A stretch of DNA of 64,000 bases, taken from contig CAYXYP010000004.1 in assembly GCA_964469405.1 (NCBI GenBank), positions 7,717-71,716 of the forward strand, written 5' to 3'. Of the stretch, positions 1,828 through 17,813 are shown piece by piece; positions within the stretch are counted from its first letter, which is position 1, and the number at the start of each line of letters is the position of its first letter. The notes beneath the pieces are model-generated. The model was given only the letters and a program-made list of their open reading frames with translations. It searched no databases and had not been told where the DNA came from. The stretch is from an uncultured Candidatus Saccharibacteria bacterium (GTDB lineage Bacteria; Patescibacteriota; Minisyncoccia; Phycocordibacterales; Phycocordibacteraceae). The position numbers and the translations under genes are program-made.

Positions 1828-2223
1828 TTAGTATCCGCCGCGACCGTATCCGCCGCCGCCGTTACCACCACCAAAACCGCCACGATCACCACCGCGGTCA
1901 CCGCCGCCAAATCCACCCTCGCGGCGTGGAGGACGATCACCTTGTGGGCGAGCGAAGGAAACTGAGAGCGTACGCCCATCAAGTTCCTTGCCGTCCAAAC
2001 GGTCGATTGCCGCCTGAGCTTCCGCTTCAGTGGCCATCTCGACGAAGCCGAAGCCTCGTGAGCGACCCGTCATGCGATCACTAATAATGCTCGCGGAAAC
2101 GACATTTCCGGCCTCACCGAAGGCCTTCTTGATATCATCTTCCGTCGAACGATAAGGAATACCACCTACGTAAAGCTTGTTCCCTTGCACCGATGCTCCT
2201 GCTGCTGGCTGCTGATTGTCCAT
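1828..2223 (-). CDS. RNA-binding protein with a single RRM domain and a glycine-rich RGG/GGY tail
   Basis: RNP-2-like KLYVGGIPY and RNP-1 RGFGFVEM are present. The C-terminus reads GGFGGGDRGGDRGGFGGGNGGGGYGRGGY. Confidence 0.85.
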   Translation of the reverse strand: MDNQQPAAGASVQGNKLYVGGIPYRSTEDDIKKAFGEAGNVVSASIISDRMTGRSRGFGFVEMATEAEAQAAIDRLDGKELDGRTLSVSFARPQGDRPPRREGGFGGGDRGGDRGGFGGGNGGGGYGRGGY

Positions 2224-2412: not shown

Positions 2413-3213
2413 ATGAAAACCGCCAAGAAAGTTAGCTGGGTCGCCGTGTCAGGAGGATTCGACCCTATACATATCGGCCACGTTCGCATGTTTGAGAAGG
2501 CAAAGAAATTTGGCGATAAACTTGTGGTTATCGTCAACAACGATAATTGGCTTCTCGCCAAAAAGGGCTACGTATTTATGTCCGAAAAGGAACGTTGCGA
2601 AATTATTGCATCGTTTCCTTCCGTCGACAAAGTCATTTTGACCTCACATAAGCCAAACGATCCAGACAGAAGTGTTTGTCGCGAACTCACGAAATTAAAA
2701 CCCGCAATATTTGCAAATGGAGGTGACCGCAAAAGTACGAAAGATATTCCTGAAGCCGTCGTCTGCGAGAAGTACGGAATAAAGATGGTCTTTAATATCG
2801 GTCACGGCGGTAAAGTCCAGTCATCCTCGTGGCTTGCGCGCGATGCGAGTCGTAACTTCGCTCGCTCGGTGCGCCCATGGGGTGAATTCTACGGATGGGA
2901 TTCTGGGAAGGAGTGGAAACTGAAGACTCTCTATGTGAAAGCCGGACAACGTCTGAGTCTGCAGTATCATCATCATCGGACCGAACATTGGATTCTCGTT
3001 GAGGGCGATGTAACTGCGACACTACAAAAACCAGGCGGAATCTCAAAGCGTATGTCGCTCAAGAAAGGGGAGGTTATATTTGTCGATCGAAAGGATGTGC
3101 ATCGACTCGAATCGAAGAAAGGTGGAATCGTTGTCGAGATCGGATTTGGGAATTTTGACGAGAACGACATCGTGCGGCTTGAGGACGATCATGGTCGCGC
3201 AGCAGAACAATAG
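2413..3213 (+). CDS. bifunctional-looking protein: N-terminal sugar-phosphate nucleotidyltransferase (cytidylyltransferase-like, HldE-domain-II/TagD type) fused to a C-terminal cupin (type II phosphomannose-isomerase-like)
   Basis: GGFDPIHIGHVRMFEKAKKFGDKLVVIVNNDNWL resembles the (H/T)xGH nucleotidyltransferase motif of the cytidylyltransferase family. The C-terminal SLQYHHHRTEHWILVEGD...VEIGFGNFDENDIVRLED is a metal-binding cupin signature, as in ManC C-terminal PMI domains. Confidence 0.7.
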   Translation: MKTAKKVSWVAVSGGFDPIHIGHVRMFEKAKKFGDKLVVIVNNDNWLLAKKGYVFMSEKERCEIIASFPSVDKVILTSHKPNDPDRSVCRELTKLKPAIFANGGDRKSTKDIPEAVVCEKYGIKMVFNIGHGGKVQSSSWLARDASRNFARSVRPWGEFYGWDSGKEWKLKTLYVKAGQRLSLQYHHHRTEHWILVEGDVTATLQKPGGISKRMSLKKGEVIFVDRKDVHRLESKKGGIVVEIGFGNFDENDIVRLEDDHGRAAEQ

Positions 3214-3241: not shown

Positions 3242-4549
3242 CTATTGCGTTTTCAGTTGAAGTTTTTTGTATAGATACGCACGCACTTTGTACCACCAGT
3301 CGGGGTTAATCGGTTTAAGGTGCACATCCTGTCTAACGATAGTGGTTGTTGCGTTTTCAGGCATGTGAAGCGTTACAGGATCATAGCCGTCTGCCTGCAC
3401 CGTTACTTCTTTATATTGTCTCGGTACGAATATTTGGTAGGTTCCATCCGACACAGTCGCATAATTGGTACCATTCACATTCACCCTCACTCCGCCCATG
3501 CTCTCGCCGAGAGAGTCATAGATTACTCCTTGTAGGTTGAATGCTTTGAAATAATTTTGCACGGTGAAATACGCCGCACGCGGCGTGCCGTCGTCGTTTA
3601 GAAGTGCTGTCGATCCTCCGCTGAGGGTCCAGTAATTCACGACAGGAATATGTGCGCGCTCCAGATACATTGCTTTGAAAAGAGAGTCAATATAATTTGC
3701 TTGTTCGGTTTGCGTCATCCATCCGTTCAAGTCGGGGATCGGTGCGCCAAATTCACCGAGTCCCACATTGGCTTTCAATTGCTCGGGGATGGCTTTGATA
3801 TCGCCTGCAAATTGTTCCGGCGTGTGCACGTAATGATCGATAAGAATTGTCCCGCCAAAAGCTCGAACAGTTGCTGGAGTAATAATTTGTCGAGCAATAT
3901 CGGCGTTCATAGAGGGGTATACGGCGACATGTTTGTCTTGTAGCGCAAATTCGTTGTCGGCAATTGTTTTTTCATCTCTAAGAAATGCATTGTACCCAGC
4001 TACATCACCCGTCTGGCGTGGATCACCTGGTCCGCCATTTTCGCACTCTGGACAAGGGCTAAAAACGTCTCCATTCTGAAAGAGTTCGGTATTATCATCT
4101 AAAAAGATTACTAGTAACTGCGTATGTGCAGTACGGTCAACTTTGGGATAATTAAACCACCCCTCCCATCCCGAGAAATTACCTCTGAACCACACTGAGA
4201 GGTGGTGTGATCGAGCGGATGCGACCCATAGTCTTAGGACGGGAAGAAACTCAGTGTCATAGGGGGTAGCAATCGCTACGTGCGTGGCACCCGCATCTGC
4301 GATACGGGCCATTTGCTTGTCTACCATTGGTTTGAATGCATTTGGATTATTGAGCATTTGTCTCGACATGTCGCGCGAGGATTTCATCGTGTCGATGGAC
4401 TGCACGCTAAAAAGATTTCCGGTAGTGGTTGGGGCGAAATAATATAAAGTGTTTCCGTGATAGGACAGGAGGAACATATATAATGCGAAAACGATTACCG
4501 AGGAAGATACGGCAAGTGTGATGAATGTGCGGAATAAAAATTTGCGCAT
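3242..4549 (-). CDS. membrane-anchored/secreted protein, possible glycoside-hydrolase-like TIM-barrel domain plus C-terminal beta-sandwich; last gene of the glycan operon
   Basis: It has an N-terminal TM helix (LAVSSSVIVFALYMFLL) and a 435-aa extracytoplasmic body. It sits at the 3' end of the minus-strand glycosyltransferase operon. The hydrolase assignment is by weak resemblance only. Confidence 0.4.
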   Translation of the reverse strand: MRKFLFRTFITLAVSSSVIVFALYMFLLSYHGNTLYYFAPTTTGNLFSVQSIDTMKSSRDMSRQMLNNPNAFKPMVDKQMARIADAGATHVAIATPYDTEFLPVLRLWVASARSHHLSVWFRGNFSGWEGWFNYPKVDRTAHTQLLVIFLDDNTELFQNGDVFSPCPECENGGPGDPRQTGDVAGYNAFLRDEKTIADNEFALQDKHVAVYPSMNADIARQIITPATVRAFGGTILIDHYVHTPEQFAGDIKAIPEQLKANVGLGEFGAPIPDLNGWMTQTEQANYIDSLFKAMYLERAHIPVVNYWTLSGGSTALLNDDGTPRAAYFTVQNYFKAFNLQGVIYDSLGESMGGVRVNVNGTNYATVSDGTYQIFVPRQYKEVTVQADGYDPVTLHMPENATTTIVRQDVHLKPINPDWWYKVRAYLYKKLQLKTQ

Positions 4550-4552
4550 TGT

Positions 4553-6235
4553 CTAATTCGATGCGGGTACATCATTCCTTTCGAATATAAGGACTTCATT
4601 TGAAGTATATGCTTTATTGAAATATTTATATAGTCGCGCATTGATTTTTGGGTTATCGTTTATGCTCGTCCATACGGTGTCGTTTTTCTGCATGACTATC
4701 CAGCGCGCGTATTTCTCGGGTGTGATGAGCGATTCTTCCCAGTATGGCTTGTTACCGATGTAGATAATGTCCTTCATTTTGATGGGCGAACGAATGATGC
4801 TGATTGTTCGCGCAAAATCATCTGTTAATACCATGCCGCGATCGTAGTGAGATTCAAGCCAGAGTTGTGCATCAGGTATTTTTGCTGTTGCAGATGATAG
4901 GCCTGCAATACCATCTTGCAAGGCAAGCACCGGGGTGAATCCGATGAAGAAGAAAATGCACTGCAACGCGAGCAATCCCCCGATGAGTGTACGACCAAAA
5001 GTCCCACTACGAGAAAACAGATATCCTATGAAGAGCGCAATAACGGGCACCATCATAGCGCCGTAGCGCACATTGAAAAGTGTCCATTCAAAAGTAATCG
5101 GCGTGATGCCTGGTAGGAATATGACCGACTGGCCTAGGAATAAGGTGAGGACATTAAAAAATAATGGGACGAGAAGTACCAATAATATGAGCCATCGGTA
5201 GCGCATTTTTCTACTGAATCCAAACATAAATAGCCCCACAAGTGCGATGCACGCTAGGAGTGTTCCAACGCTCTGCATACTCGTGACCGTGTAATAAAGC
5301 AGCGCTACAAGGATATTGTGGTATGCGGGCAGCTCGCCTCTAACGAGCCAACTATTTTGTTGCGAGCTGGCTGAGAATTGACTGTGAGTGAAATAGAGTG
5401 GATCGCCGAGAATGAGAGCTCCCCATGAGAGCCAGAGGAAAATGCCAAAGAACGCTAATGTTATGAACAATATTTCGCGCCCCTCGAGTCGGTGCCATAG
5501 TTCCAAGAGCGTGCGCTTGCTCTTATGTATGAAGAGAGGCACTCGCTTACTCTGCAATCGAAACCAGGTGAGATTAAATCTCAAAGGAAAATAGTAGAGA
5601 AAGAGCACTCCTGCTTCCATCATCACGAGCGCCCAGCCGTCGTAGCGTGAGAGGGAAGCGCAGAATCCAAATCCTGCCGCTGCGATAAGCATGAGCAGTT
5701 TCGTATCATCGAGGAGAAACCGTATGAAGAAATAGCTTGAGAGAATGAAGAAGACGACCAGTGGGAGCTCGGTCATCGGTGTTGATTGTAGATAGAGGAT
5801 GTTGGGATTCGACATGAACACTATCGCTGCAAAAAAGGCTGCGCTCTTATTTCTGGTGAGAAGGTGAACGAGTTTGTATATATAAAGACTCGAAATAACA
5901 AAAGCAATGCCAGATATGATTGATCCCGCGAGTCCAGTACGCCAAAGGAAATCAAAGTATACGAATGGTATGAGCAATACGTGCGGCAAGGGCAACCAAA
6001 TACCGCCAAGCTGGGCAAAGCCAGGGGTGAGACTGTCTACGACGCGCTTGGCGATGTTGAGGTGCGACTCTGCATCCCCGTAGGCAGCGATGTATCCGTG
6101 AGTAAACGAATATGCCGTCGCGAGTATCGCGACGAATACGGCGAGTATAACGACCCACCACTCGGGAGTGAGCCATATACTCGGACGAAGTATCCATTCA
6201 AAATATTTCTTTCTGATGACAAAGGTGCTATTCAT
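4553..6235 (-). CDS. GT-C superfamily membrane glycosyltransferase (ArnT/PMT-like, polyprenyl-phosphate-sugar dependent)
   Basis: The 560-aa ORF has about 11 TM helices followed by a soluble C-terminal domain. The architecture is typical of GT39/GT83-like enzymes. It overlaps the upstream gene by 8 nt. Confidence 0.6.
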   Translation of the reverse strand: MNSTFVIRKKYFEWILRPSIWLTPEWWVVILAVFVAILATAYSFTHGYIAAYGDAESHLNIAKRVVDSLTPGFAQLGGIWLPLPHVLLIPFVYFDFLWRTGLAGSIISGIAFVISSLYIYKLVHLLTRNKSAAFFAAIVFMSNPNILYLQSTPMTELPLVVFFILSSYFFIRFLLDDTKLLMLIAAAGFGFCASLSRYDGWALVMMEAGVLFLYYFPLRFNLTWFRLQSKRVPLFIHKSKRTLLELWHRLEGREILFITLAFFGIFLWLSWGALILGDPLYFTHSQFSASSQQNSWLVRGELPAYHNILVALLYYTVTSMQSVGTLLACIALVGLFMFGFSRKMRYRWLILLVLLVPLFFNVLTLFLGQSVIFLPGITPITFEWTLFNVRYGAMMVPVIALFIGYLFSRSGTFGRTLIGGLLALQCIFFFIGFTPVLALQDGIAGLSSATAKIPDAQLWLESHYDRGMVLTDDFARTISIIRSPIKMKDIIYIGNKPYWEESLITPEKYARWIVMQKNDTVWTSINDNPKINARLYKYFNKAYTSNEVLIFERNDVPASN

Positions 6236-9200
6236 GGCGACGAATGTATGACAAGAGGAGTACGATTGCTGCGATAACTGCTATCACCACATATATGATG
6301 AGGAAATATTCCATCAAGGTGAGATGGATATACATATACGTCTTGTACACAAAGCTGCCACTTATATTGTCTTGCAGGAGTGGAATATCTTTCAAATAAT
6401 TGTATGTCTTTATTGGAAGTAATATTGCCTCAGATTTTTTTGGAATAGCATTTGATGTTAATGCTCCAAGAAGTGCTATGGCTGATGAGAAGAGGAACAG
6501 TGCGAATGCGGCGATTTTTTTTGGACCAAGAAATCGCCCATAGGAAAGTGCTATACCCACAAAAAGCGCGAGCCATGGCATTGCGGGGATGAGGTATCGC
6601 GGACCATACGCTGACCCTCCCCACGGATCACCCCATGCGCAGTACAGAAATATATTCGTCGCAATGAGAGCAATTGGTACGATATATATAGTACGATAGG
6701 TCTTCTTCCTGCGGAGAACATACATGATGCCAAGGAGCGAAAAAATAAATATCGGCGAGAAAAAGAATAGACCCCGCTCGTCAGAAAATAAGAGGACATA
6801 AAAACTGTTTGGTATGGATTTCTCATGGAAAAATCCAACAGCAGTTTTATCTTTTATTGGGACAGTGCTTGTGGCTGTTGCCGAAGTTGTAGTCGAGGAC
6901 GCCTTCGCAATTGCTGGCGTACTTGTCGCAGTGACAACTTTGTATCCTTTTAACTCTCCTGCAAGATGGCTCCATCCGCCGTAGTACGTGGCATTGTGCC
7001 AGAAATGTAGGCTGGTAACGAAAGCGAATACCACAAATGTCGCAATCGCACTCCATTGTATCGATATCGCAATACCCTCACGAATTTTTTTGAACGAGAA
7101 TGTCGAGACCGCGAGATAGATCATGACCGGTAGCATAAGTACGGCATTTGGGTAGTCGACGAAGATTGCAAGCGCATACGCGAGCCACACATACGCCGCA
7201 TAGAGGAATCTATATCGAGCGTCGCTTTGTGAGAAGCGCCATGCTGCATAAAATGCGGTGACGATAAAACATGCCGTAAAAGCGTTTTGATAGAGAGTGA
7301 TGGCATAGCTCCATGAGGTTGATCCAAATGCGTAGACAAGGACGGCGAATAATGCAGCCCATCGCGGTAATGCGAAGATACGTAGCCCGATGAGATATAT
7401 GAAAACGAGCGTAACGATGCTTATGAGGGATTCTGCAGAAAAGGTAGCAACTTGTCCGAGTCCATATTGCGCACCAAAAAGATAGAAGGGAAGAGTAAAA
7501 TACGAAACACCCGGGGCGAAATAGCTGTCTAATTTTCCATCAGACGACACGCCAACATCAGGATAGGCGATATCAGCCCATGTTTTCGAGAGATTATAGA
7601 CTCCATTCTCAGCCATGTTTGCGACTTGGGTATAGCGGCCACGCTCAGGGGACAATTCAAAAGCGTTTGTTGGTTGGTCTAAATTATTCTTGAATTGATC
7701 TTCGGTTGGATTTCCTGGTGCGCCACGCAACGTCAGTCCGTACATGACGAGACCAAGCATGACGATTGCTATGATGATGGCCGTATCTTTCTTTATAGTT
7801 ATTTTGCTCAGCCAGCTACTTTTTTTGGGAGTTTCTTTCCGCGGCGAGTAATACACTTCTGGTACTAAGGGAATATTCCCATCGGGAAACATCATTTTGG
7901 TCTGACTTGTGTATTCTTTGATCATCCCGAGTTTCATCTCCGGCTCTTCCTCGAAACGAAATACTTCAGTCGCGAGAGGATTGTCATCTTTCGAACCTAG
8001 AACGTTCTTCATATTGTAAGGGAAATCCTTCCACAGAATTACATTTTCGAAATTTTTGAGGCATACATCGCGGACGATCACGTGATCAATGTGTGATTTC
8101 AGAGCGAGCGGGCAGAAAATGACGAATTGTTTCTCATTCGCAATGAGCGCCCTTAATTCTTCCCCGAGGGAACGCATAAGATCTGTGTCGTGGGATGAAA
8201 TTGCTCCGCGGGCGATGTGTAATTGGTGTATCGGATACAAGTGCAAAAATTCCGGAAGAATACGGGAGAGTAGTTGGCGGAACTTACTCGGAGACGTTAT
8301 TTTTCTCCATGAAGCATCGATATATCCAAGATGGTGTGGAGTAATCCCGATACGTGAGTATGCTTTGCGGTCCTCTTCTTTTCGATCAATAAGGAGTTGA
8401 TTAGTATCCGTATACCCACACCGGTACAAGAATCGTAGGACGGAAAGCGTGTATGGTGGCGTCGACGCAGCGGTAAAAACGCTTATAACTTCGACTTGCG
8501 TATGCTTCGACAGGTGCGTAATTAAACCACCCGCCGATAGAGCAGCATCATCCAAGTGTGGAGAAATAAAATAGCACGGGATTTTCCCCGTAATTATTTT
8601 CTGCAAAAAATGAGTGTCGCCCATACTCGCCCGTATTTTTTTAGAGCTTTCTGCCATCTCCCACAATGAAGTAAACTTGTCGGTTTTGTGCAAGCGAACA
8701 TATAACAATATCAGAATAAAATTTATGGAAAAAATAGGGTGCGTGAAAAATTCTTTTACCATTTCCCTGAGTATGAGTCCGGGTGGAATAGCATATGCTT
8801 TTCTGGCCTCATCGCCAAATATATCAATCACAGCCTCTTTGCCTGCAGCAAAACGAGAACTCTGTTTTATATGGTCGCGGAGATTTGTTGGGCAACGAAA
8901 TATCGCTCGAGGATATTTTACGGAAACAAAATGCATTTTGTTTCCCATACAAAACATATACGACATAGCATCATACGGAGTATTGTCTGGGTACTGAATC
9001 GTTGCATATAATTTCTTTGAGAATGCCTGAGCAGGACCGAAACAAGTGTAAAGATTGTTCCCACTTCCTATCGATAAAAATAATTTCTGTTTCAATTCAT
9101 GATTCCAGACAAGAACCTTTTCAGTAAATGTTTTTGGGTTTGAAGGAAGAAGTGCCGCGCTCGTTAGTCCGACGGAGGAGTCATTAATAATTGGGCGTAT

Positions 9201-9533
9201 CAGTTCCTCTACAAAAAACTCATTTTCAGGCAAAATATCCGCATCGAGCATTACCATGATGTCGACTGTGGCATGTCGCAATAGCATATTTTTAGCTCGA
9301 ATGGCTCCGCCTCTTGTCTCAGAGCGGATAAGTTTTACTTTTTCTCCTGCGAACGAACGAACGATAGCGTCTGTCTCATCCGTACTGGCGTCGGATACGA
9401 CCACTATTTCAACTAGGTCTGCAGTATCGATCTTCTGACGAAGGAGTTCAGTCAGAAGCACCCCGATATTTTCGGCTTCATTATATGCAGCTATGGTAAT
9501 AGTGAGTGTAGGTTTCATATTTTTGGCATACAA
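6228..9533 (-). CDS. tri-domain fusion: GT2 glycosyltransferase + LmbE/PIG-L family N-deacetylase + multi-TM GT-C-like glycosyltransferase
   Basis: The N-terminus reads TITIAAYNEAENIG...VVVSDASTDETD...LDAD, a GT-A/GT2 DxD fold. The middle section has ISPHLDDAALSAGGLI, the PIG-L/LmbE HxDD zinc-deacetylase signature. The C-terminal ~550 aa carries about 13 TM helices of PMT/ArnT-like type. Confidence 0.7.
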   Translation of the reverse strand: MYAKNMKPTLTITIAAYNEAENIGVLLTELLRQKIDTADLVEIVVVSDASTDETDAIVRSFAGEKVKLIRSETRGGAIRAKNMLLRHATVDIMVMLDADILPENEFFVEELIRPIINDSSVGLTSAALLPSNPKTFTEKVLVWNHELKQKLFLSIGSGNNLYTCFGPAQAFSKKLYATIQYPDNTPYDAMSYMFCMGNKMHFVSVKYPRAIFRCPTNLRDHIKQSSRFAAGKEAVIDIFGDEARKAYAIPPGLILREMVKEFFTHPIFSINFILILLYVRLHKTDKFTSLWEMAESSKKIRASMGDTHFLQKIITGKIPCYFISPHLDDAALSAGGLITHLSKHTQVEVISVFTAASTPPYTLSVLRFLYRCGYTDTNQLLIDRKEEDRKAYSRIGITPHHLGYIDASWRKITSPSKFRQLLSRILPEFLHLYPIHQLHIARGAISSHDTDLMRSLGEELRALIANEKQFVIFCPLALKSHIDHVIVRDVCLKNFENVILWKDFPYNMKNVLGSKDDNPLATEVFRFEEEPEMKLGMIKEYTSQTKMMFPDGNIPLVPEVYYSPRKETPKKSSWLSKITIKKDTAIIIAIVMLGLVMYGLTLRGAPGNPTEDQFKNNLDQPTNAFELSPERGRYTQVANMAENGVYNLSKTWADIAYPDVGVSSDGKLDSYFAPGVSYFTLPFYLFGAQYGLGQVATFSAESLISIVTLVFIYLIGLRIFALPRWAALFAVLVYAFGSTSWSYAITLYQNAFTACFIVTAFYAAWRFSQSDARYRFLYAAYVWLAYALAIFVDYPNAVLMLPVMIYLAVSTFSFKKIREGIAISIQWSAIATFVVFAFVTSLHFWHNATYYGGWSHLAGELKGYKVVTATSTPAIAKASSTTTSATATSTVPIKDKTAVGFFHEKSIPNSFYVLLFSDERGLFFFSPIFIFSLLGIMYVLRRKKTYRTIYIVPIALIATNIFLYCAWGDPWGGSAYGPRYLIPAMPWLALFVGIALSYGRFLGPKKIAAFALFLFSSAIALLGALTSNAIPKKSEAILLPIKTYNYLKDIPLLQDNISGSFVYKTYMYIHLTLMEYFLIIYVVIAVIAAIVLLLSYIRRHE

Positions 9534-10717
9534 TCTCTATATACGGTATCCATTTTCCGGGCGACATCTTTCCATGATTGTCCTTTGCCAAAAATGGCGT
9601 TCGCCTCTTTTATTTTCTGTACGCTTGTTGCATTGCTCGGATCAAGAAGCCACAAAACTTTTTCGGCAACTTTTTTATCATCGTGTACCGGAAGACAAAA
9701 ACCATTCACGCCGTCTTTGATAAGTCCAGGGAGGCCATACACATCGGATACAACACAGGGAATCCCTTGGCTCATTCCTTCGCGTACGACATTGCAACCA
9801 CTCTCCCATAATGCCATGTGTACCATGGCAACGGCATGTCGCATGAGATAATATTTATCAATTCCGCGGACGACACCAGTGAATACAATACGCTTTCCAA
9901 GCCGAAGCTCTGCTATAAGGTTTTTCAGTTTTTGTTCATATGTCGCATCTTGCAATTGACCAATGACCACAAACTTCATGTTCTCCGGTAGATGCGCGAG
10001 TGCTCGAATCGTTGTTTCGATATTTTTGATCGGGTACACTCGTGCGACTTGAATGATATATCTGCCGTACGTTGCAACCGCTTTTTTAACATCTGCGCTC
10101 GCTAAAGCGTCAATATCTCCATACGCTTCATCTTCGAGCCCGTTGTCTATCAAGTGAACCTTTTCGGGCCTAATATATTTCACTTCTTCCGTTCGTTCCC
10201 ACTCCGATACTGCGCGCACGCCATCAACGGTGGCGTTTATAAGCCATGCACCAAGTGTGTGAGTGTATATCTTTTTTACGAAACGACTTACGGGAGGGAA
10301 CATTGACCATTCGGGACTAAAACCACCATGCGGGGTGAGTATAAGCGCAAATTCTTTCTTCCCAATTATTTTAAATAAAAGCGCATAAAAGAGATACCGC
10401 ACAAAGAATATGTCAAAATTATGAAGTGCGATGACATCAGTCTCTCCCCAATGTAGTTCAGGAGAAAATCCGAATACGCCACTCTCGTATCTTTTTACGC
10501 GGAGGCCATTCATGATCTCTTCTGCTACGAGTATATTTTTCTCAGTGTATGTATCTCTGAGTGTATGTATGGTTACATCCCAGCCGAGCGTATTCTGCAA
10601 GGCGACATACGTCTGCATAATGTTATTCTCGATACCTCCTGCAACGGGGTAGAAATACTTCGTGATAACGTCCACGTGTTTTTTTGGCACATTTACGAGA
10701 GTAGTCATGGCTGTCAT
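9515..10717 (-). CDS. GT4 (GT-B, group 1) glycosyltransferase
   Basis: The C-terminal EGMSQGIPCVVSDVYGLPGLIKDGVNGF matches the EX7E-type GT4 donor-binding motif. The ORF is 400 aa. It overlaps both neighbours by 19 nt and 4 nt. Confidence 0.8.
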   Translation of the reverse strand: MTAMTTLVNVPKKHVDVITKYFYPVAGGIENNIMQTYVALQNTLGWDVTIHTLRDTYTEKNILVAEEIMNGLRVKRYESGVFGFSPELHWGETDVIALHNFDIFFVRYLFYALLFKIIGKKEFALILTPHGGFSPEWSMFPPVSRFVKKIYTHTLGAWLINATVDGVRAVSEWERTEEVKYIRPEKVHLIDNGLEDEAYGDIDALASADVKKAVATYGRYIIQVARVYPIKNIETTIRALAHLPENMKFVVIGQLQDATYEQKLKNLIAELRLGKRIVFTGVVRGIDKYYLMRHAVAMVHMALWESGCNVVREGMSQGIPCVVSDVYGLPGLIKDGVNGFCLPVHDDKKVAEKVLWLLDPSNATSVQKIKEANAIFGKGQSWKDVARKMDTVYRDCMPKI

Positions 10718-12450
10718 TTTATTATTACAGCAGTTGAAATCACCGCATATCGCGGATCATTAAACAAAAGATCCTCATCGGCGAGCTCTTCTTTTGCGAG
10801 CCCAACCCAAAACGCTTGTCCAGAAAGGACATTCCCATACGAAGAAACAAGTATATGTTCCGGTGAGACACATTTCCCAAAAAGATATTTGAGCGAGGTG
10901 GGAGTATATCTCCAATAGCATCGTTCCGGATTTTGCATTACTCCCATAGACGAGACGGTGACGAGAAGCACACCTCCTGGTTTCAATATGCGAACAGCTT
11001 CCCGCGCCGCAGACTCGTGATCGTCAATGACCCCGAGCGTGTGCGTAAGAATGATGCAGTCGTAGGTATTTTCCGGAATATGACTCATATTTCTCAAATC
11101 ACCATACAAATTCGCCCTCTTATTTTTTATATCTACATCAAGCACATCACTTTTTGTCACTTTGGCACCACCGAAACGGGCGGTGTAGTCGTTAGTACAT
11201 ATTTCAAGACAGTAACCACGTATATATGCCGCATTAGTTTCTAAAAATAACTCGATGTAGTGACGATCAATCGGAGTGCCTCGGTCAAAACCAAATTTTT
11301 TGCTTATTGGGAAAAGGGAGTATTTTGATTTTGGTCGAAAAAAACGCATGAAAAGAGTACGAATTCTCCCAAGAAGAGAGACGAACATGTCTATAATGGT
11401 CGACCTTGGATAGACCGATTGGCTTCGCAAGGCATCTCCCGATAAATCATGAGATATATCACTCCACTCATATACAACAGCATTAAAGCATCGAAAGTTT
11501 AATTTGAGGCGTTCTTCACTCTCTGTATCGTGGAGTAATTGGACGGCGGATATTGCAAAAAGCGCACGAAATATTTTTGCAGTTTCTTGCGATTTGCCAT
11601 ATAGCGATGCGACACCATTTAGAACGACCTTTCGAGATTCATCGTTATCCCACTCCCAATGCAATGAGTTGGTAAATATTTGGAGCAAACTTGTAAAAGC
11701 ATTATCGCCAAAATCAATGATAACAACCCCTTCTTTGTTTACGAGGACATTCTCAAAATGAAAATCTCGATGAACTAACCCTTCATGCCAATGTGAGGCA
11801 AGAGGTGGAACTGCTTGCAGAACCATCGGTATTGTTCGTATGAGAGTCGGTATTTCTCGAGGATATCGGATAGCGGCGTATACAAGACTGACACCATAAG
11901 CAAATAGCGTGTCGGATAGTGTACGTCTGGGAATCTGGCTTTTTTCAGAGGCGTTGAATTGGTCACCAATATATTTCCAAAAATCAATTGCGAGATTAAA
12001 GGTTTCGTATTTTTTTGAAAATGGAGTGACATCTTTTAAATGTATACAATTTTCTATATACTCAAAGACCGCCAGAATATGCGTAGGAGATATTTCCTTT
12101 TCTAAAAGGCGAGGGATGCATATGTGCCGGTATTTCTCTTCAAGTGAGGACCCAATGCGATCCAGCACCCCATGGAGAAGCATGTACAACCGAATCTCGT
12201 TCATGAGTTGGTAGTATTCGTATGTTTGAACTGGCCCCCTCCATATTTTGATAAGAACTTTGTGTCCCTGATTATTTTCGTATACACCAATACCGCGCGG
12301 AGAACTTACGAGAACGGTGTGCAATCGAAAGCCATTGTATTCCGCAGGAAGTGATGTGTCAGAGTCAATTCGCTTGAACAAGCTTACTACGCTAGTTTTT
12401 AATACTAGAGATATGTGCCAGAAAATGTTTGTTTGCTTTATAATAGTCAT
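10714..12450 (-). CDS. fusion of a protein-kinase-like/aminoglycoside-phosphotransferase-like kinase domain and a class I SAM-dependent methyltransferase
   Basis: HRDFHFENVLVNKEGVVIIDFGD gives an HRD catalytic loop plus a DFG motif. The C-terminal DCIILTHTLGVIDD...ILKPGGVLLVTVSS is a Methyltransf_11-type fold. Confidence 0.65.
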   Translation of the reverse strand: MTIIKQTNIFWHISLVLKTSVVSLFKRIDSDTSLPAEYNGFRLHTVLVSSPRGIGVYENNQGHKVLIKIWRGPVQTYEYYQLMNEIRLYMLLHGVLDRIGSSLEEKYRHICIPRLLEKEISPTHILAVFEYIENCIHLKDVTPFSKKYETFNLAIDFWKYIGDQFNASEKSQIPRRTLSDTLFAYGVSLVYAAIRYPREIPTLIRTIPMVLQAVPPLASHWHEGLVHRDFHFENVLVNKEGVVIIDFGDNAFTSLLQIFTNSLHWEWDNDESRKVVLNGVASLYGKSQETAKIFRALFAISAVQLLHDTESEERLKLNFRCFNAVVYEWSDISHDLSGDALRSQSVYPRSTIIDMFVSLLGRIRTLFMRFFRPKSKYSLFPISKKFGFDRGTPIDRHYIELFLETNAAYIRGYCLEICTNDYTARFGGAKVTKSDVLDVDIKNKRANLYGDLRNMSHIPENTYDCIILTHTLGVIDDHESAAREAVRILKPGGVLLVTVSSMGVMQNPERCYWRYTPTSLKYLFGKCVSPEHILVSSYGNVLSGQAFWVGLAKEELADEDLLFNDPRYAVISTAVIIK

Positions 12451-15400: not shown

Positions 15401-16662
15401 GCGCGGAAAAGAAAGTAACAAATCGTCGTCACCCACATGATGGGATTGATGAAAAGCGAAAGTATCTTTCCGCCAACGATGAGCTGGAAAAGAAAAAAAT
15501 CTTTTCCTTTCCCCGCTGTGAAATACTCCTGCGGATTACGCATGTGCACGAAATAGGTCTGGATGTAGCCTTTGATCCACCTGCTGCGCTGGTTGTACCA
15601 ATTCAGGACGTCCGAGTTGGCCTCCTCGTGTGTGGTCGAATCGACGATTGCCGTTTTGTAACCGCGCTTGGCGAGGCGCATACCGAGGTCACAATCCTCG
15701 GTGACGTTAAACGCATCCCAGCCCCCGAGCTCACGGAGCGTGTCTCTGCGGAAATGGTTGGAAGTTCCGCCAAGCGGAATAGGCGCCCCGATTGATTGAA
15801 AGCCGGGGAGAACCAAGTCGAACCAGAGTGAATATTCCGCGCTAAAGAGTCTCGTGAGAATGTTCTGTTGCGGATTATAGAAATTGAGTTTGGCTTGGAT
15901 GCAGGCCACGCTCGCATCTACTTTTTTGAATGCGAGAACCGCCTTCTTAAGTTGGTCGACTTCGGGGACATCCTCGGCGTCGTATATAACGACATACTCG
16001 CCGCTCACATAATTAAGGCCGTAGTTCATCGCCTTCGGCTTGGTCTTCGGCTTTGAGTGCGGCACGACCACGATGTGGAAGTGCTCGGGCAGGGAGGACG
16101 TGCTTATTTTCTGTATGGTTTCCGTATCGTTCTCCTCGAGAAGAAAAAGGACCTGAAGTTTCTCGTGCGGGTAATCAAGTTTCTGCATCGCTTCGACGAA
16201 CTGAGGTACCACCTGCCATTCTTTATAGAGCGGACAGAAGATCGTGTAGGTCGGGCAGTTCTCGTCGCGGAGTCCCGCTATCTCTGATGCGCTGATGCGT
16301 ATTTCGGGGAGCGCTTTGTAGCTTTGGAAAATAATGAACGCACTAAATAGAAGATCGAAAAAATAGAGCACGGTCATCACGCCGAACAGCGCGATGGCGG
16401 TCATCTGCCAATTGAGAACAAATGCAAATGCAAGGAGTCCGATAGCTGTTCCTAAAAATATTTTCTGATGTCTAAGTAAATTGAAAAACGCTGATTCTGT
16501 CACATGCAAATCTGCATGATGAATGAATTCGGCACCCTTGTAATGGAAGCCCGTCTGCATCGTGTTAGACATAATGGGCGACATGTGTGGATCATGCTCC
16601 GGCCCGAAGATGAAACCACGCACTTTCCGGGACAGGTTCGTGTACGCATCAACGTATCTCAT
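12454..16662 (-). CDS. 1402-aa tri-module protein: processive GT2 synthase (cellulose/chitin/PNAG-synthase-like, QxxRW) + about 12-TM Wzx/MOP-flippase-like module + C-terminal GT4 glycosyltransferase
   Basis: The N-terminal domain has DAEDVPE, TEDCDLGMRL and QRSRWIKG (D, D, D, QxxRW) flanked by TM helices. The central ~450 aa is highly hydrophobic and polysaccharide-biosynthesis/flippase-like. The C-terminus reads EGWGITTIEANACGTPVIASDVSGLRDSVRDGETGLLV, a GT4 signature. Confidence 0.75.
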   Translation of the reverse strand: MRYVDAYTNLSRKVRGFIFGPEHDPHMSPIMSNTMQTGFHYKGAEFIHHADLHVTESAFFNLLRHQKIFLGTAIGLLAFAFVLNWQMTAIALFGVMTVLYFFDLLFSAFIIFQSYKALPEIRISASEIAGLRDENCPTYTIFCPLYKEWQVVPQFVEAMQKLDYPHEKLQVLFLLEENDTETIQKISTSSLPEHFHIVVVPHSKPKTKPKAMNYGLNYVSGEYVVIYDAEDVPEVDQLKKAVLAFKKVDASVACIQAKLNFYNPQQNILTRLFSAEYSLWFDLVLPGFQSIGAPIPLGGTSNHFRRDTLRELGGWDAFNVTEDCDLGMRLAKRGYKTAIVDSTTHEEANSDVLNWYNQRSRWIKGYIQTYFVHMRNPQEYFTAGKGKDFFLFQLIVGGKILSLFINPIMWVTTICYFLFRAKIGLFIEAFFPGPILYIGVFSLVFGNFLYLYYYMIGCVKREYDGLIKYVFLIPFYWLGMSFAAWQALYEIIVKPHYWAKTVHGLHLAPVKIIPQIPWTMRVPVPQIAFDMKAVMAKQPPRTVLTLIPVKNPALPASIDMAANAVPDNEPELIHILSDNTEKETWFVKTRKFITSSAGLLVMSSVVANIINFAFNAYLGRHLNFEDFGTITLVSTFVYLLNLFVNGVGTTLNHTVSYLEGIAPGKGSLFFRHTWLHIFIPSMIGSIVWFASVPFISDFFHMSGYVVIAAFAPAIFFGSLNAYNAGYLQGMWSFGMLAFLALFESSSRLAAAMILVSMSAYEFSSLAIPISIFLGWAGSTACAALVYRKIPAAQRTAQTETKFSLDFYAASLMKGFSIAMVLSVDVILAKHYLSPYDAGVYALLSTIGKMIYFFGSLLNVFIVSMVSRAMGKGRDPEKEFGKIFVGTAFLSISAGLGLSLFGWFLAPLLLGASALMIVPYLIPYSIAMTLFTLATTVVLYQLARERYFFPAISLVLSLSMLTSMVFYHSSVAVFVQTAVAFNIIYFLIIAASHIFYNQLLYAYRNLYDILIIYKPLPPARPHIPGKKNILVFNWRDTKSVFAGGAETYVQALASRWVKDGHSVTLFTSNDGHLPPNGETDGVRIIRRGGFYATYVIASLYYLFHFRGTFDVIVDSENGIPFFTPLYATEPVYCLVHHIHQDVFRKSLVWPLSSFACFLERDFMPLVYRNCNFITVSDSSKQAMETLNITTKDIQVVNPGIDTNFLTPGKKAFVPTVSYVGRLKEHKSVHVLIEAFKEVLARVPDAELIIAGDGEEENNLKRLTQKLDLGNSVSFRGKVSEEEKRDILRTSWVFVTPSMIEGWGITTIEANACGTPVIASDVSGLRDSVRDGETGLLVPYGDTGALAEKIILVLVDGTLRKILSRYAIVWSQNFEWSKSSQKFIEAISSREFISHHEASLVNRT

Positions 16663-17395
16663 TTTGTGCGGTAGGAAGAGCGCTATAGCGTCCCAGAATG
16701 CGGTTCCACGATATGTGTGCGAGCTCGCCGAGCGTTTGGAAATAAGAAACAGCGGTAACTTTGGATCCGGCGGGATTGTCCCATACGACGGGAAGTTCCT
16801 TTATCTTGAAGTCATTTTTGCGAGCGATGACTAAAACCTCGATATCAAATCCAAAACGCTCGATAGTCTGTCGCGGGAAAATCGCGTCGGCCGCCTTTGC
16901 GGAAAATAGTTTGAATCCGCGCTGAGTGTCTTCAATTCCCGGCACCGCTAAGAGCTGTACGAGCATGTTTGCACCTGAACCGAGTATTCTGCGGTGCCAG
17001 CCATTATGCTCGGATACGTCGGTGGTATCAGTGATGTGTATAGAACCGATAGCAACGTCGAACCCATTTGAGAGAGAGCGCATGAACATATCGAGGTGTG
17101 AGATATCTACTGAGTTGTCAGCGTCCATAAACAGTCGATAGTCGCCCGTCGCGGCGAGCATTCCGCGCTTGACGGAGAAACCCTTTCCGCTATTTTTTTC
17201 ATTTATTAGAACCTGCAGGTTTTTTATTCTTGACGCATAGCGTCCGGCCACAAAGGCGGTGCCGTCAGTCGAGCCATCGTCGACCACGATCACTTCGACG
17301 GGCATGTCATTATGGGCGAAATATCGTTCGATGCTCTCGAGTGTATTCCCGATACGCGTCGCTTCGTTGTAAGCCGGTATGACTATGGAAAGCAT
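16649..17395 (-). CDS. GT2 polyprenyl-phosphate glycosyltransferase (Dpm1/GtrB-like)
   Basis: MLSIVIPAYNEATRIGNTL...VIVVDDGSTDGT...DADNS is present. I place the start at the ATG at the complement of 17393-17395, just after the GtrA stop. The ORF track extends it to 17455. Confidence 0.75.
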   Translation of the reverse strand: MLSIVIPAYNEATRIGNTLESIERYFAHNDMPVEVIVVDDGSTDGTAFVAGRYASRIKNLQVLINEKNSGKGFSVKRGMLAATGDYRLFMDADNSVDISHLDMFMRSLSNGFDVAIGSIHITDTTDVSEHNGWHRRILGSGANMLVQLLAVPGIEDTQRGFKLFSAKAADAIFPRQTIERFGFDIEVLVIARKNDFKIKELPVVWDNPAGSKVTAVSYFQTLGELAHISWNRILGRYSALPTAQNEIR

Positions 17396-17399
17396 ATTT

Positions 17400-17813
17400 T
17401 TATCCATGAGATTTTTTGAACACCAGGAATCGATAGCCGAGGAAGTTCCATCCAAGCACGACGAAGGTGCCCATCAATGCTCCAATGTTTGCCGCAAGTT
17501 GCGGGGAAGCCTGCTGCACGAAGAGGGTGAAGACGGCAAACGAAATTGATACGTTTATCCAGAAGCCTACCGCGGATATGATGAAGAAAAGTAGTGGCTC
17601 TTTCACGTTTGTCGGCGTGTCGTGCCTAAAGACCCACCATTTATTCAATATGTAGCTATTGGCGACAGCCGCGAGGAAAGAGATGCTCTTGAATACGACG
17701 AAAAGTTCACCATGGACACCGGTACCAAAAAAGTATATTAAAATGTTGAGCACCATTAAATCGAGTGCTGTGTTAAGCACTCCGACACAGAAGAATTTAA
17801 AAAATGTATACAT
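17400..17813 (-). CDS. GtrA-family small membrane protein (polyprenyl-P-sugar translocation partner of GtrB-like GT2)
   Basis: The 137-aa ORF has 4 TM helices. FFKFFCVGVLNTALDLMVLNILIYF is GtrA-like. It is the first gene of the operon. Confidence 0.7.
   Translation of the reverse strand: MYTFFKFFCVGVLNTALDLMVLNILIYFFGTGVHGELFVVFKSISFLAAVANSYILNKWWVFRHDTPTNVKEPLLFFIISAVGFWINVSISFAVFTLFVQQASPQLAANIGALMGTFVVLGWNFLGYRFLVFKKSHG

Follow-up and report, generated by a model that had tools for sequence, protein, structure and literature searches.

Patescibacteria (CPR) are abundant, mostly uncultured and episymbiotic bacteria whose envelope chemistry is largely uncharted. The window analysed here is a stretch of 64,000 nucleotides from an uncultured Candidatus Saccharibacteria bacterium. 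On its minus strand, a stop-free open reading frame (ORF; 6228..9533, 1101 codons counted from a TTG) joins a GT2 glycosyltransferase, an LmbE/PIG-L deacetylase and a GT-C glycosyltransferase, which raises the question of whether one polypeptide makes a polyprenyl-phosphate N-acetyl-hexosamine, de-N-acetylates it and transfers the resulting amino sugar, as the original prediction proposed. The analysis supported the domains, their topology and the recurrence of a deacetylase; it did not support the closed line of donor synthesis, de-N-acetylation and transfer. We found that the ORF is a genuine and recent end-to-end joining of three adjacent genes from a conserved envelope-glycan operon of Patescibacteria, yielding a new domain architecture built from known kinds of enzyme. 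Our results suggest that the three domains work side by side in a pathway and do not by themselves make up a complete three-step line.

Domain identities, catalytic residues and predicted topology

All features described below lie on the minus strand. The likelier start of the fused gene (6228..9518; 1096 aa; stop codon 6228-6230) is the ATG at 9518, which shares the sequence ATGA with the TGA stop codon of the upstream GT4 gene and is where public gene calls begin; the TTG at 9533 lies five codons upstream. The three identities assigned to the ORF were right, with Pfam matches for GT2 and PIG-L and a GT-C fold for the remainder.

The GT2 domain (aa 1-298; 8625..9518) was delimited by Pfam, by a family alignment and by a family profile searched against the PDB. 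Glycos_transf_2 (PF00535) matches at aa 7-134 (E 3.8e-23; 82.7 bits, threshold 23.3), and the family otherwise consists of standalone proteins of ~300 aa ending in WEMAxSSKK. Its invariant residues are D43, D94 (in D92-A-D94), D183, Q219 and R222; in a 14-sequence family alignment, D43 (within SDAS) and the DxD motif D92-A-D94 are invariant or nearly so, and the fused domain keeps every family-invariant residue predicted to be catalytic. The top PDB match of the family profile is 6yv7, PcManGT (3e-17). Because we take this best solved relative to be dolichyl-phosphate dependent, a polyprenyl-phosphate acceptor is conceivable for the fused GT2. Full-length likeness to the curated polyprenyl-phosphate sugar synthases was nevertheless not found: the matches to ArnC (E 0.063) and PpgS (E 0.092) are partial, and the family profile covers DPMS only at 5-121, GtrB at 6-134 and ArnC at 5-104. 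A weak match to the HfsG model (E 1.1e-6) falls far under its curated cut-off.

Hydropathy revealed no C-terminal transmembrane (TM) hairpin of the GtrB/ArnC type in the fused GT2. The sole hydrophobic segment within the N-terminal 566 aa is a marginal one at aa 256-274 (8697..8753; mean Kyte-Doolittle 1.59), which probably anchors the protein at the membrane interface without spanning the bilayer. The sequence on either side of this helix should be cytoplasmic, because fusions in relatives that involve the same GT2 family (GT2f), namely GT2f-GT4b and PIG-L-GT2f, require it.

The LmbE/PIG-L deacetylase domain (aa 299-566; 7821..8624) matches PF02585 at aa 317-485 (E 1.8e-9; 38.6 bits, threshold 28.2). 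Its PDB matches, Dbv21 (3dfi, 2.9e-16) and Orf2* (2x9l, 2e-13), make teicoplanin-type glycopeptide deacetylases its nearest solved relatives, while the curated equivalog models for MshB, BshB and PIG-L gave no match. The segment ISPHLDDAALSAGG, quoted earlier as the zinc deacetylase motif, is present, and its SPHLDD begins at aa 319. This motif (S319-P-H321-L-D323-D324; 8547..8564) aligns with SPHLDD of 3dfi and 2x9l; H321 and D324 are the presumptive zinc ligands and D323 the presumptive general base, and all three residues are conserved in 53/53 homologues. A second motif, S475-H476-I-D478-H479 (8082..8096), corresponds to HPDH in the solved relatives and would supply the third zinc ligand, H479; H476, D478 and H479 are conserved in 50-53 of the 53 homologues. 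The catalytic His and Asp of the middle domain, on whose loss the original prediction was to fall, are thus conserved on alignment, and the domain retains every family-invariant residue with a predicted catalytic role in zinc-dependent de-N-acetylases. The 2xad chain has HPDN at the position of HPDH. In the AlphaFold model of the full-length protein, pLDDT is below 50 across the GT2 and PIG-L regions.

The C-terminal module (aa 567-1096; 6231..7820; about 13 TM helices) has the GT-C fold, as anticipated. Standalone homologues of this module, each 500-550 aa long, number more than 680 across Patescibacteria. Among solved structures, those of ALG12 and ArnT, two users of polyprenyl-phosphate monosaccharide donors, lie closest, and the structural matches include GT-C mannosyltransferases. 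At the level of sequence, neither PMT_2 (PF13231) nor PMT (PF02366) matches the fused protein at E <= 1, so that its sequence profile places it in neither GT83 nor GT39, and the GT-C family profile matched no PDB sequence; some GT-C homologues carry a precomputed weak PF13231 match. All 26 family-invariant residues are kept. Hydropathy, charge, invariant columns and the model predict a net acidic extracytoplasmic loop 1 (aa 598-697; 7428..7727), in which E621, S623 and E625 (FELSPERGRY) and D654 (YPDVG) are family-invariant, with E621, E625 and D654 invariant among 117 sequences; these four residues are candidates for catalysis or donor binding. Going only by its fold relatives, the module would use a lipid-phosphate-linked sugar donor.

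The single marginal hydrophobic segment in aa 1-566, the K/R-rich short loops and the acidic loop 1 point to a topology in which the GT2 and deacetylase are cytoplasmic and loop 1, with E621, E625 and D654, faces outward. On this point the original prediction, with its GT-C acting at the outer membrane face, is supported. The deacetylase is bracketed by the interfacial helix and by TM1 of the GT-C (N-in orientation), as a cytoplasmic-face de-N-acylase would, and relatives fuse PIG-L to cytoplasmic GT4, GT2 and kinase domains.

The operon and its relatives

The flanking genes were also as claimed. Upstream, the GT4 (9515..10717), whose best curated match is Agl16 and which matches the GlcNAc-PG synthase model at E 2.4e-5, is translationally coupled to the fused gene by the ATGA overlap. 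Downstream, a second GT-C (GT-C2; 4553..6235) matches PMT_2 (30.9 bits; cut-off 26.1) and is unrelated in sequence to the fused GT-C; it is followed by a 435-aa membrane protein with a CarboxypepD_reg-like domain (3242..4549), the last core gene of the cluster (45/57 loci). The upstream part of the operon encodes a fusion of an APH-like kinase with a methyltransferase (10714-12450), a 1402-aa protein that is core in relatives and combines a BcsA-like GT2, a multi-TM region and a GT4 domain with PimA as its best match (12454-16662), and a GtrA/GT2 pair (16649..17813). This pair comprises a GtrA-like protein with four TM helices (17400-17813) and a DPMS/PpgS-like GT2 (16649-17455) that matches DPMS (PDB 5mlz) at 9.8e-15 over aa 2-223 and, near full length, the NCBIfam models for PpgS (6.7e-12) and Dol-P-hexose transferase (2.1e-13). 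The GtrA gene adjoins this GT2, not the fused one. The pair is, on sequence grounds, a better candidate than the fused GT2 for the polyprenyl-phosphate sugar synthase and flippase, and beside it the notion that the fused GT2, with its marginal ArnC and PpgS matches, makes the lipid-linked donor of the GT-C was not supported.

The fused gene led to a group-wide cluster. We compared about 80 related genomes and counted genes in 57 species-level loci with 10-kb flanks. The GT-C of the fused type (GT-C1) is a core gene, directly followed by a GT-C2-type gene in 52/57 loci. By contrast, GT2f occurs in 0, 1, 2 or 3 copies in 6, 19, 23 and 9 loci, respectively. A one-synthase-per-GT-C relation does not fit, because GT2f varies between 0 and 3 copies beside a near-constant GT-C pair. 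A deacetylase is found in 36/57 loci, as CE4 in 21 and PIG-L in 15 but never both, and a FemAB-like acyltransferase accompanies PIG-L in six loci. Co-occurrence thus revealed no dependence of the GT-C on a deacetylase or a dedicated GT2, absent from 21/57 and 6/57 loci, respectively, although loci so scored may encode such genes beyond the 10-kb flank. The minimal cluster (L053) has neither GT2f nor deacetylase, and its GT-C1 and GT-C2 directly follow the core synthase. Deacetylase-free clusters have other tailoring genes in the same position, either a DegT aminotransferase with an SDR or a polysaccharide pyruvyl transferase. Within the 10-kb flank, searches at phmmer sensitivity found the GtrA/DPMS-like pair in 32/57 loci.

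GT2f lies directly upstream of the GT-C in 23/57 loci and is fused to it in six representative clusters. The GT-C has also been joined to PIG-L-acyltransferase, PIG-L-kinase, CE4 and kinase partners; because it fuses to whatever gene is immediately upstream, fusion reflects adjacency in a compact operon. In the 16/16 other loci, PIG-L is preceded by a GT4 domain and never by GT2f.

Our literature search returned no publication on this gene cluster. Its core comprises the giant BcsA-like/PimA-like synthase, the PpgS/DPMS-like GT2, the two GT-Cs and the membrane protein. A tailoring cassette that differs from species to species is set between these genes; in it, LmbE-type and CE4-type deacetylases interchange, and their place can be occupied by aminotransferases or pyruvyl transferases. 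The cluster may encode the principal surface glycoconjugate pathway of Patescibacteria, a proposal that can be tested. Its tailoring cassette could generate variation in surface charge and antigens, with possible consequences for attachment to hosts and recognition by phages.

Pathway readings and known systems

We hold with roughly even confidence that the three domains act in one pathway and at one patch of membrane, with the N-terminal pair modifying the cargo or acceptor glycan and the GT-C carrying out a conserved outer-face step. The GT2 and deacetylase would be held at the membrane by the interfacial helix and TM1 of the GT-C, and this cytoplasmic pair would belong to the tailoring part of the pathway, which varies among species. 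A HexNAc would be placed on a lipid-linked glycan intermediate by the fused GT2 or the neighbouring GT4, and the PIG-L domain would strip the N-acetyl group to leave a free amine (HexN); after flipping, the conserved late GT-C step would take place at the outer face. The donor of the GT-C would most probably be a polyprenyl-phosphate hexose from the separate PpgS/DPMS-like GT2 and GtrA pair. Modification of the cargo or acceptor glycan, rather than synthesis of the GT-C donor, is the most likely role of the N-terminal pair.

Such tailoring has precedents. HfsG/HfsH (Caulobacter holdfast) and NodC/NodB(/NodA) each pair a GT2 with a cytoplasmic de-N-acetylase, and their substrate is a GlcNAc glycan, lipid-linked or still nascent, that has yet to be exported. 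The weak HfsG match of the fused GT2 is paralleled by weak NodB and HfsH matches of the relatives' CE4, far under the curated cut-offs, and the FemAB-like acyltransferase found with PIG-L recalls the deacetylate-then-re-acylate order of NodB/NodA. Unlike the present protein, these systems have a CE4 in place of PIG-L and involve no GT-C fusion. The GtrA/GtrB/GtrX three-component systems, described as a paradigm of extracytoplasmic glycosylation (PMC11127046), resemble the present operon, which brings together a GtrA-like protein, a DPMS-like GT2 and GT-Cs. Here, what is fused to the GT-C is another GT2 family and a deacetylase instead of the GtrB-like GT2, and two unrelated GT-Cs stand in tandem.

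A self-contained line of the ArnC-ArnD-ArnT kind is unlikely by comparison. In it, the GT2 would make polyprenyl-phosphate-HexNAc, PIG-L would convert this to polyprenyl-phosphate-HexN, and after flipping the GT-C would transfer the amino sugar to an envelope acceptor. ArnC-ArnD-ArnT (lipid A aminoarabinose), FlmF2-NaxD-FlmK and PpgS/Rv3632-Rv3779 bring together the same classes, namely a GT2, a cytoplasmic-face de-N-acylase and an outer-face GT-C. The domain order and topology agree with them, as do the donors of the nearest solved GT-C relatives, the recurrent deacetylase-GT-C and GT2-GT-C fusions, the GT2 immediately before the GT-C in 23/57 loci and the CE4 (ArnD family) that stands in place of PIG-L in relatives such as L001. 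Here, however, the deacetylase is LmbE/PIG-L, a family that to our knowledge none of these pathways uses, and all three parts form one polypeptide; we also know of no lipid A in Patescibacteria. Moreover, the fused GT2 resembles ArnC and PpgS only over the generic nucleotide-binding half (partial model matches, E 0.06-0.09) and appears to lack the C-terminal TM hairpin, a better PpgS/DPMS-like GT2 with GtrA lies within the same operon, and PIG-L in other loci follows GT4 and never GT2f. The variable GT2f copy number and the persistence of the GT-C where deacetylase or GT2f is missing likewise argue against it, the GT-C being independent of the deacetylase across relatives. The operon's PpgS-like GT2 and GtrA-like partner recall PpgS with Rv3632 from the analogous mycobacterial PpgS/Rv3779 GalN pathway, whose deacetylase is still to be identified (PMC9671496), a point in favour of the self-contained line. 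LmbE/PIG-L offers a candidate enzyme class for the missing deacetylase of such pathways.

Less probable still is a route resembling early glycosylphosphatidylinositol (GPI) or lipoglycan assembly. A GT4 or GT2 would put GlcNAc on a membrane lipid or primer, PIG-L would produce a GlcN-lipid, and this, once flipped, would be the direct acceptor of the GT-C, with a polyprenyl-phosphate hexose from the DPMS-like GT2 as donor. The scheme follows the order PIG-A, PIG-L, PIG-M, the last with Dol-P-Man. The GPI steps, MshA/MshB and BshA/BshB share the PIG-L family with its zinc motifs, and a GT4 ahead of PIG-L in relatives, PimA as the best match of the GT4 domain in the 1402-aa protein, GT-C mannosyltransferases among the structural matches and the DPMS-like GT2 with GtrA in the operon all point the same way. 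Amino-sugar-lipid operons are also known: in gpgSDF (GlcN-phosphatidylglycerol) and hexSDF, a glycosyltransferase and then a deacetylase load a membrane lipid with HexNAc and bare its amine, and a flippase carries the product outward (PMC11483062), but these operons contain no GT-C. Against this route, HexN cannot be an obligatory GT-C acceptor, because the GT-C is also present in deacetylase-free clusters; the neighbouring GT4 best matches Agl16, an archaeal N-glycan enzyme, rather than PIG-A, MshA or BshA; and the nearest solved deacetylases are of the teicoplanin type, with no curated equivalog match.

We likewise give only a small chance to a complete single-chain amino-sugar machine, in which the GT2 charges polyprenyl phosphate with HexNAc, the LmbE domain deacetylates this and the GT-C transfers the sugar, coupled to CPR-wide charge tuning by PIG-L and CE4. 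Were it true, LmbE-type enzymes would be a fourth, previously unrecognised family for deacetylation of lipid-linked sugars, after CE4 (ArnD), YdjC (NaxD) and a mycobacterial enzyme yet to be named. The GT-C would then put a cationic sugar on the Patescibacteria envelope, and the alternation of PIG-L and CE4 would mark a CPR-wide system for tuning surface charge.

A recent fusion in one lineage

Whichever role the N-terminal pair plays, the natural fusion provides a stoichiometric, membrane-anchored construct that could be expressed to seek the substrates of the deacetylase and the GT-C. A protein identical to it (P0151) is called on nine public contigs, and a second allele (L010; 95% identical) is found on two further contigs, one at 505x coverage. 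Together, the two alleles occupy more than 10 contigs, independently assembled from several groundwater samples, in the same reading frame. The three-domain architecture is limited to one 90%-identity cluster, and the single-polypeptide form is restricted to one species-level lineage.

At junction 1 (8622..8648), the GT2 C-terminal SSKKI is followed by RAS and the former PIG-L ATG (8622-8624), with an A7 run at 8636-8642. At junction 2 (7794..7826), an A7 run (7820-7826) puts the ancestral TAG out of frame; in a relative with a standalone PIG-L (L005), the C-terminus reads ...YYAPREKM-TAG, followed by ATGAAAAAAGAC. The former GT-C start codon is ATA (7794-7796) in both alleles, where relatives have ATG AAA AAA GA(T/C), and because this start has been lost the GT-C part can be made only as a fusion. 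The alleles differ by 51 amino-acid changes, yet both junctions are identical at the nucleotide level. All three domains are under purifying selection, with dN/dS values of 0.09 (GT2), 0.20 (PIG-L) and 0.17 (GT-C).

It is highly improbable that errors at the two A7 runs merged three genes or that the ORF is a pseudogene: the homopolymers at both junctions, stops in the other two frames beside junction 2 and the confinement to one cluster would fit, but the frame shared among independent assemblies, a diverged allele that retains both junctions, a dN/dS of 0.09-0.20 in each domain and the intact GT-C residues and deacetylase motifs all speak against it, and with ATA in both alleles a frameshift correction would leave the core GT-C gene without a start.

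Three-domain fusion of operon neighbours

On its minus strand, the window carries an ORF without internal stop codons (6228..9533), whose first ATG lies at 9518. Because this ATG forms an ATGA overlap with the stop codon (TGA) of the GT4 gene upstream and is the start used in public gene calls, the fused protein is counted as 1096 residues. Pfam assigned Glycos_transf_2 to aa 7-134 (E 3.8e-23) and PIG-L to aa 317-485 (E 1.8e-9), both over the curated thresholds; the C-terminal half, which we recognized as a GT-C by its fold, had no Pfam match and, in NCBIfam, only weakly matched a family of putative Leptospira glycosyltransferases. The original prediction of a GT2, LmbE/PIG-L deacetylase and GT-C in one polypeptide is thereby confirmed, as are its flanking genes, a PMT_2-type GT-C (ORF 4553-6235, hereafter GT-C2) and a GT4 (ORF 9515-10717).

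The domain boundaries retain the ends of formerly separate genes. The GT2 part ends exactly at the end of a standalone family of about 300 aa (WEMAxSSKK), four residues further lies the Met that starts standalone PIG-L proteins, and the C-terminus of the PIG-L part resembles that of the separate PIG-L protein at the related locus L005 (...PEVYYAPREKM-stop). An A7 run in the window shifts the ancestral TAG after PIG-L out of frame, and the ancestral GT-C start, ATG AAA AAA GA(T/C) in relatives, reads ATA AAG AAA GAT. The GT-C, a core enzyme, thus lacks a separate start codon and can therefore be made only within the fusion, whose junctions would be spanned by peptides such as ...SSKKIRASMGDTH... 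and ...KETPKKSSWLSK.... Both junctions coincide with A7 homopolymer runs (window 7820-7826 and 8636-8642), which suggests that the stop codons came to be bypassed through slippage.

Such runs could also invite sequencing error, yet an artefact of this or another kind is extremely improbable: nine contigs, drawn from several assemblies and read sets of Hainich groundwater, encode the identical fused protein; both junctions are nucleotide-identical in a second allele, which is 95% identical, differs by 51 substitutions and lies on two contigs (one at 505x coverage); and comparison of the two alleles gives a dN/dS of 0.09 for GT2, 0.20 for PIG-L and 0.17 for GT-C. The fusion is real, recent and under selection; it arose by the joining of operon neighbours and is confined to one species-level lineage.

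When 1.84 billion representative proteins were searched exhaustively and domains were then mapped locally, the order GT2-PIG-L-GT-C was found only in this cluster. Its uniqueness rests on this search and mapping together with a survey of 79 loci, and the 50% clustering of the representative library can conceal fusions beneath shorter representatives. Queried with all 1096 aa, a word-indexed search for homologues returned at least 30 matches and missed standalone GT-Cs 81% identical over 520 aa, which were recovered with the C-terminal query alone. A full-length homologue search by itself is therefore no evidence of a unique fusion, and negatives of word-indexed searches with multidomain queries are untrustworthy.

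Deacetylase and GT-C modules and their topology

Among solved structures, the PIG-L domain is closest to two glycopeptide deacetylases of the LmbE family, Dbv21 (3dfi, E 2.9e-16) and Orf2* (2x9l, E 2e-13), whose SPHLDDA and HPDH motifs align with SPHLDDA and SHIDH in the window. Among 53 aligned homologues of this domain, H321, D323, D324, D478 and H479 were kept in every one and H476 in 50. As the His/Asp motif residues are conserved across these homologues, the objection that the middle domain might have lost its catalytic residues falls away, and the domain is, judged by its sequence, catalytically intact. An NCBIfam scan of this domain, one standalone PIG-L and a FemAB-like acyltransferase gave no curated family match.

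Over 680 proteins of 500-550 aa are standalone homologues of the GT-C module, at up to 81% identity, in Parcubacteria, Microgenomates and other Patescibacteria. Since its family profile gave no meaningful match against PDB sequences, comparison of folds was needed. An AlphaFold model built on an alignment of 117 homologues reached pLDDT 90.9 and pTM 0.92, and its best 36 Foldseek PDB matches were all GT-C enzymes, including AglB, ArnT, STT3, ALG3, PglB, AftB, Pmt4 and Emb. The predicted structure thus identifies the C-terminal module as a GT-C, in keeping with the original prediction; membership of the ArnT/PMT family was undetectable at the sequence level with Pfam or with the family profile against PDB. 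E621, S623 and E625 (FELSPERGRY) and D654 (YPDVG), in the first loop after TM1, are family-invariant. The fused-type GT-C (GT-C1) and GT-C2 show no sequence similarity, and for this reason they are not taken to be paralogues. Within the module, a Ser/Thr/Ala-rich loop (ATSTPAIAKASSTTTSATATSTVPIK; aa ~864-892, window ~6843-6938, minus strand) is predicted to be disordered (pLDDT < 50) and differs in length and sequence among homologues.

Residues 1-566 of the fused protein contain a single marginally hydrophobic stretch (aa 256-274), and the GT-C helices score far higher. KITIKKD lies just before TM1 (aa 579-597) and a net-acidic loop of 100 residues just after it, and the short GT-C loops 810-815, 936-942 and 995-1001 are K/R-rich; together these features predict an N-in GT-C whose conserved acidic loop is outside. 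Cytoplasmic nucleotide sugars are required by GT4 and GT2 enzymes alike, and GT2-GT4 and PIG-L-GT2 fusions are present in relatives; the helix after GT2 is therefore likely non-spanning. We infer that GT2 and deacetylase lie at the cytoplasmic face. In the full-length AlphaFold model with a mixed alignment, the GT2 and PIG-L halves had pLDDT < 50, too low for any claim on how the domains are arranged or where GT2 binds its acceptor. A candidate QxxRW-type acceptor-sugar motif, Q219-x-x-R222, was set aside, because hhalign of the GT2 family against the BcsA-like and DPMS-like GT2s of the operon was confident only over the nucleotide-binding half.

Conserved core and variable cassette across Patescibacteria

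Three close relatives of the locus are syntenic, with the domains partitioned differently among genes: APH-GT4-CE4, GT2 and GT-C in L001; GT2-GT4, PIG-L and GT-C in L005; and GT2, CE4, GT2, GT2 and GT-C in L006, CE4 being the deacetylase family of ArnD. We surveyed 79 further loci (L012-L090) of species-representative genomes with domain queries from the window, and counted cassettes in the 57 of them whose upstream sequence extends for at least 7 kb. A variable cassette sits between two core parts. Upstream lie GtrA and a DPMS-like GT2, the latter often fused to a protein comprising a BcsA-like GT2, a multi-TM region and a PimA-like GT4; downstream lie GT-C1, GT-C2 and a CarboxypepD_reg membrane protein. 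GT-C2 directly follows GT-C1 in 52/57 loci. The fused-type GT2 is present in zero, one, two or three copies in 6, 19, 23 and 9 loci, respectively, and in L053 the core genes abut directly without any cassette.

A deacetylase occurs in 36 of the 57 loci, as CE4 in 21 and PIG-L in 15, and never as both, which argues that de-N-acetylation is a real pathway step in about two thirds of species. GT2 precedes CE4 in 20/25 cases and a GT4 domain precedes PIG-L in 16/16; a FemAB-like acyltransferase (Acetyltransf_6) was found in six loci, each time with PIG-L. Deacetylase-free cassettes carry different tailoring genes beside GT-C1, either a DegT aminotransferase with a short-chain dehydrogenase, a pair which we read as an alternative amino-sugar route, or a polysaccharide pyruvyl transferase; such genes lie just upstream of GT-C1 in L057 (7112-9971), L076 (7225-10001), L051 (8781-10010) and L065 (8807-9940).

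In the window, the upstream core comprises a 137-aa GtrA-like protein with four TM segments and, directly downstream of its gene, a 248-aa GT2 (together 16649-17813, minus strand), followed by a 1402-aa protein (12454-16662, minus strand). The latter combines a BcsA-like processive-type GT2 (aa ~136-418) with a PimA-like GT4 (aa ~1040-1380), and the multi-TM region of about 600 aa between them had no Pfam or PDB match; elsewhere in Patescibacteria this core gene either takes in the DPMS-like GT2 as well, giving 1500-1900 aa, or is divided between two genes. The 248-aa GT2 matches Pyrococcus DPMS across aa 2-223 (E 9.8e-15) and the PpgS, Dol-P-hexose transferase and AglJ models over almost its full length. 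Reminiscent of PpgS/Rv3632 or GtrB/GtrA, this GT2 and the GtrA-like protein probably serve the operon as polyprenyl-phosphate sugar synthase and flippase.

These data bear on the proposal that GT2, PIG-L and GT-C form a closed, ArnC-ArnD-ArnT-like pathway in cis. Deacetylation as a pathway step is upheld by the alternation of PIG-L and CE4, but the dependence of the GT-C on deacetylase and GT2 is not: GT-C1 is a core enzyme present also in clusters lacking a deacetylase or the fused-type GT2, the copy number of that GT2 is uncoupled from the near-constant GT-C pair, and the GT-C fuses to whichever gene is upstream (GT2, PIG-L-acyltransferase, PIG-L-kinase, CE4, kinase-CE4 and GrpB-kinase in the representative library). 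Nor is the fused GT2 favoured as the donor synthase, matching the ArnC and PpgS models at only E 0.06-0.09, whereas the DPMS-like GT2 beside GtrA is the better candidate. We put about even odds on a scheme in which GT2 and PIG-L belong to a variable cytoplasmic cassette that would tailor a lipid-linked glycan, PIG-L yielding a HexN residue from a HexNAc installed by the fused GT2 or the adjacent GT4, while the GT-C would carry out a conserved outer-face step, most probably with a polyprenyl-phosphate hexose from the DPMS-like GT2/GtrA pair. The closed pathway is unlikely on the evidence given, and a GPI-like scheme, with the HexN-lipid as direct acceptor of the GT-C, is distinctly improbable.

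Related systems and accessory genes

In enzyme classes and topology, the fused protein resembles both ArnC-ArnD-ArnT and the mycobacterial PpgS/Rv3632/Rv3779 GalN pathway, the deacetylase of which is still unidentified (PMC9671496). The parts of the GtrA/GtrB/GT-C three-component system are present in the operon as a whole (PMC11127046), and in the gpgSDF and hexSDF operons a glycosyltransferase, deacetylase and flippase produce amino-sugar lipids (PMC11483062). A literature search for this cluster or fusion in Patescibacteria found no publication. Cytoplasmic GT2-then-deacetylase pairs are represented by holdfast HfsG/HfsH and Nod-factor NodC/NodB, to which weak profile matches point. To our knowledge, an LmbE/PIG-L enzyme is fused to a GT-C in none of the Arn, PpgS, Gtr, gpgSDF/hexSDF, HfsG/HfsH and NodC/NodB systems. 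The fused protein combines known kinds of enzyme in a new domain architecture, and it is of value mainly because it leads to a phylum-wide cluster for envelope glycans that is uncharacterised and in which the deacetylase type switches between species.

Further genes accompany these enzymes. A 578-aa fusion of an APH-like kinase and a class-I methyltransferase (10714-12450, minus strand) corresponds in relatives to separate genes, or to a kinase fused to GT4-CE4, PIG-L or GT-C. The 435-aa product of 3242-4549 (minus strand), which has a TM segment at its N-terminus and a beta-sandwich domain resembling CarboxypepD_reg, follows the GT-C pair in 45/57 loci and is fused to GT-C2 in two. The cluster is adjoined by a bacterial RRM-domain protein (1828-2223, minus strand) and by a gene (2413-3213, plus strand) in which a cytidylyltransferase-like domain is joined to a cupin of the mannose-6-phosphate isomerase type, the latter gene being syntenic in L001, L005 and L012.
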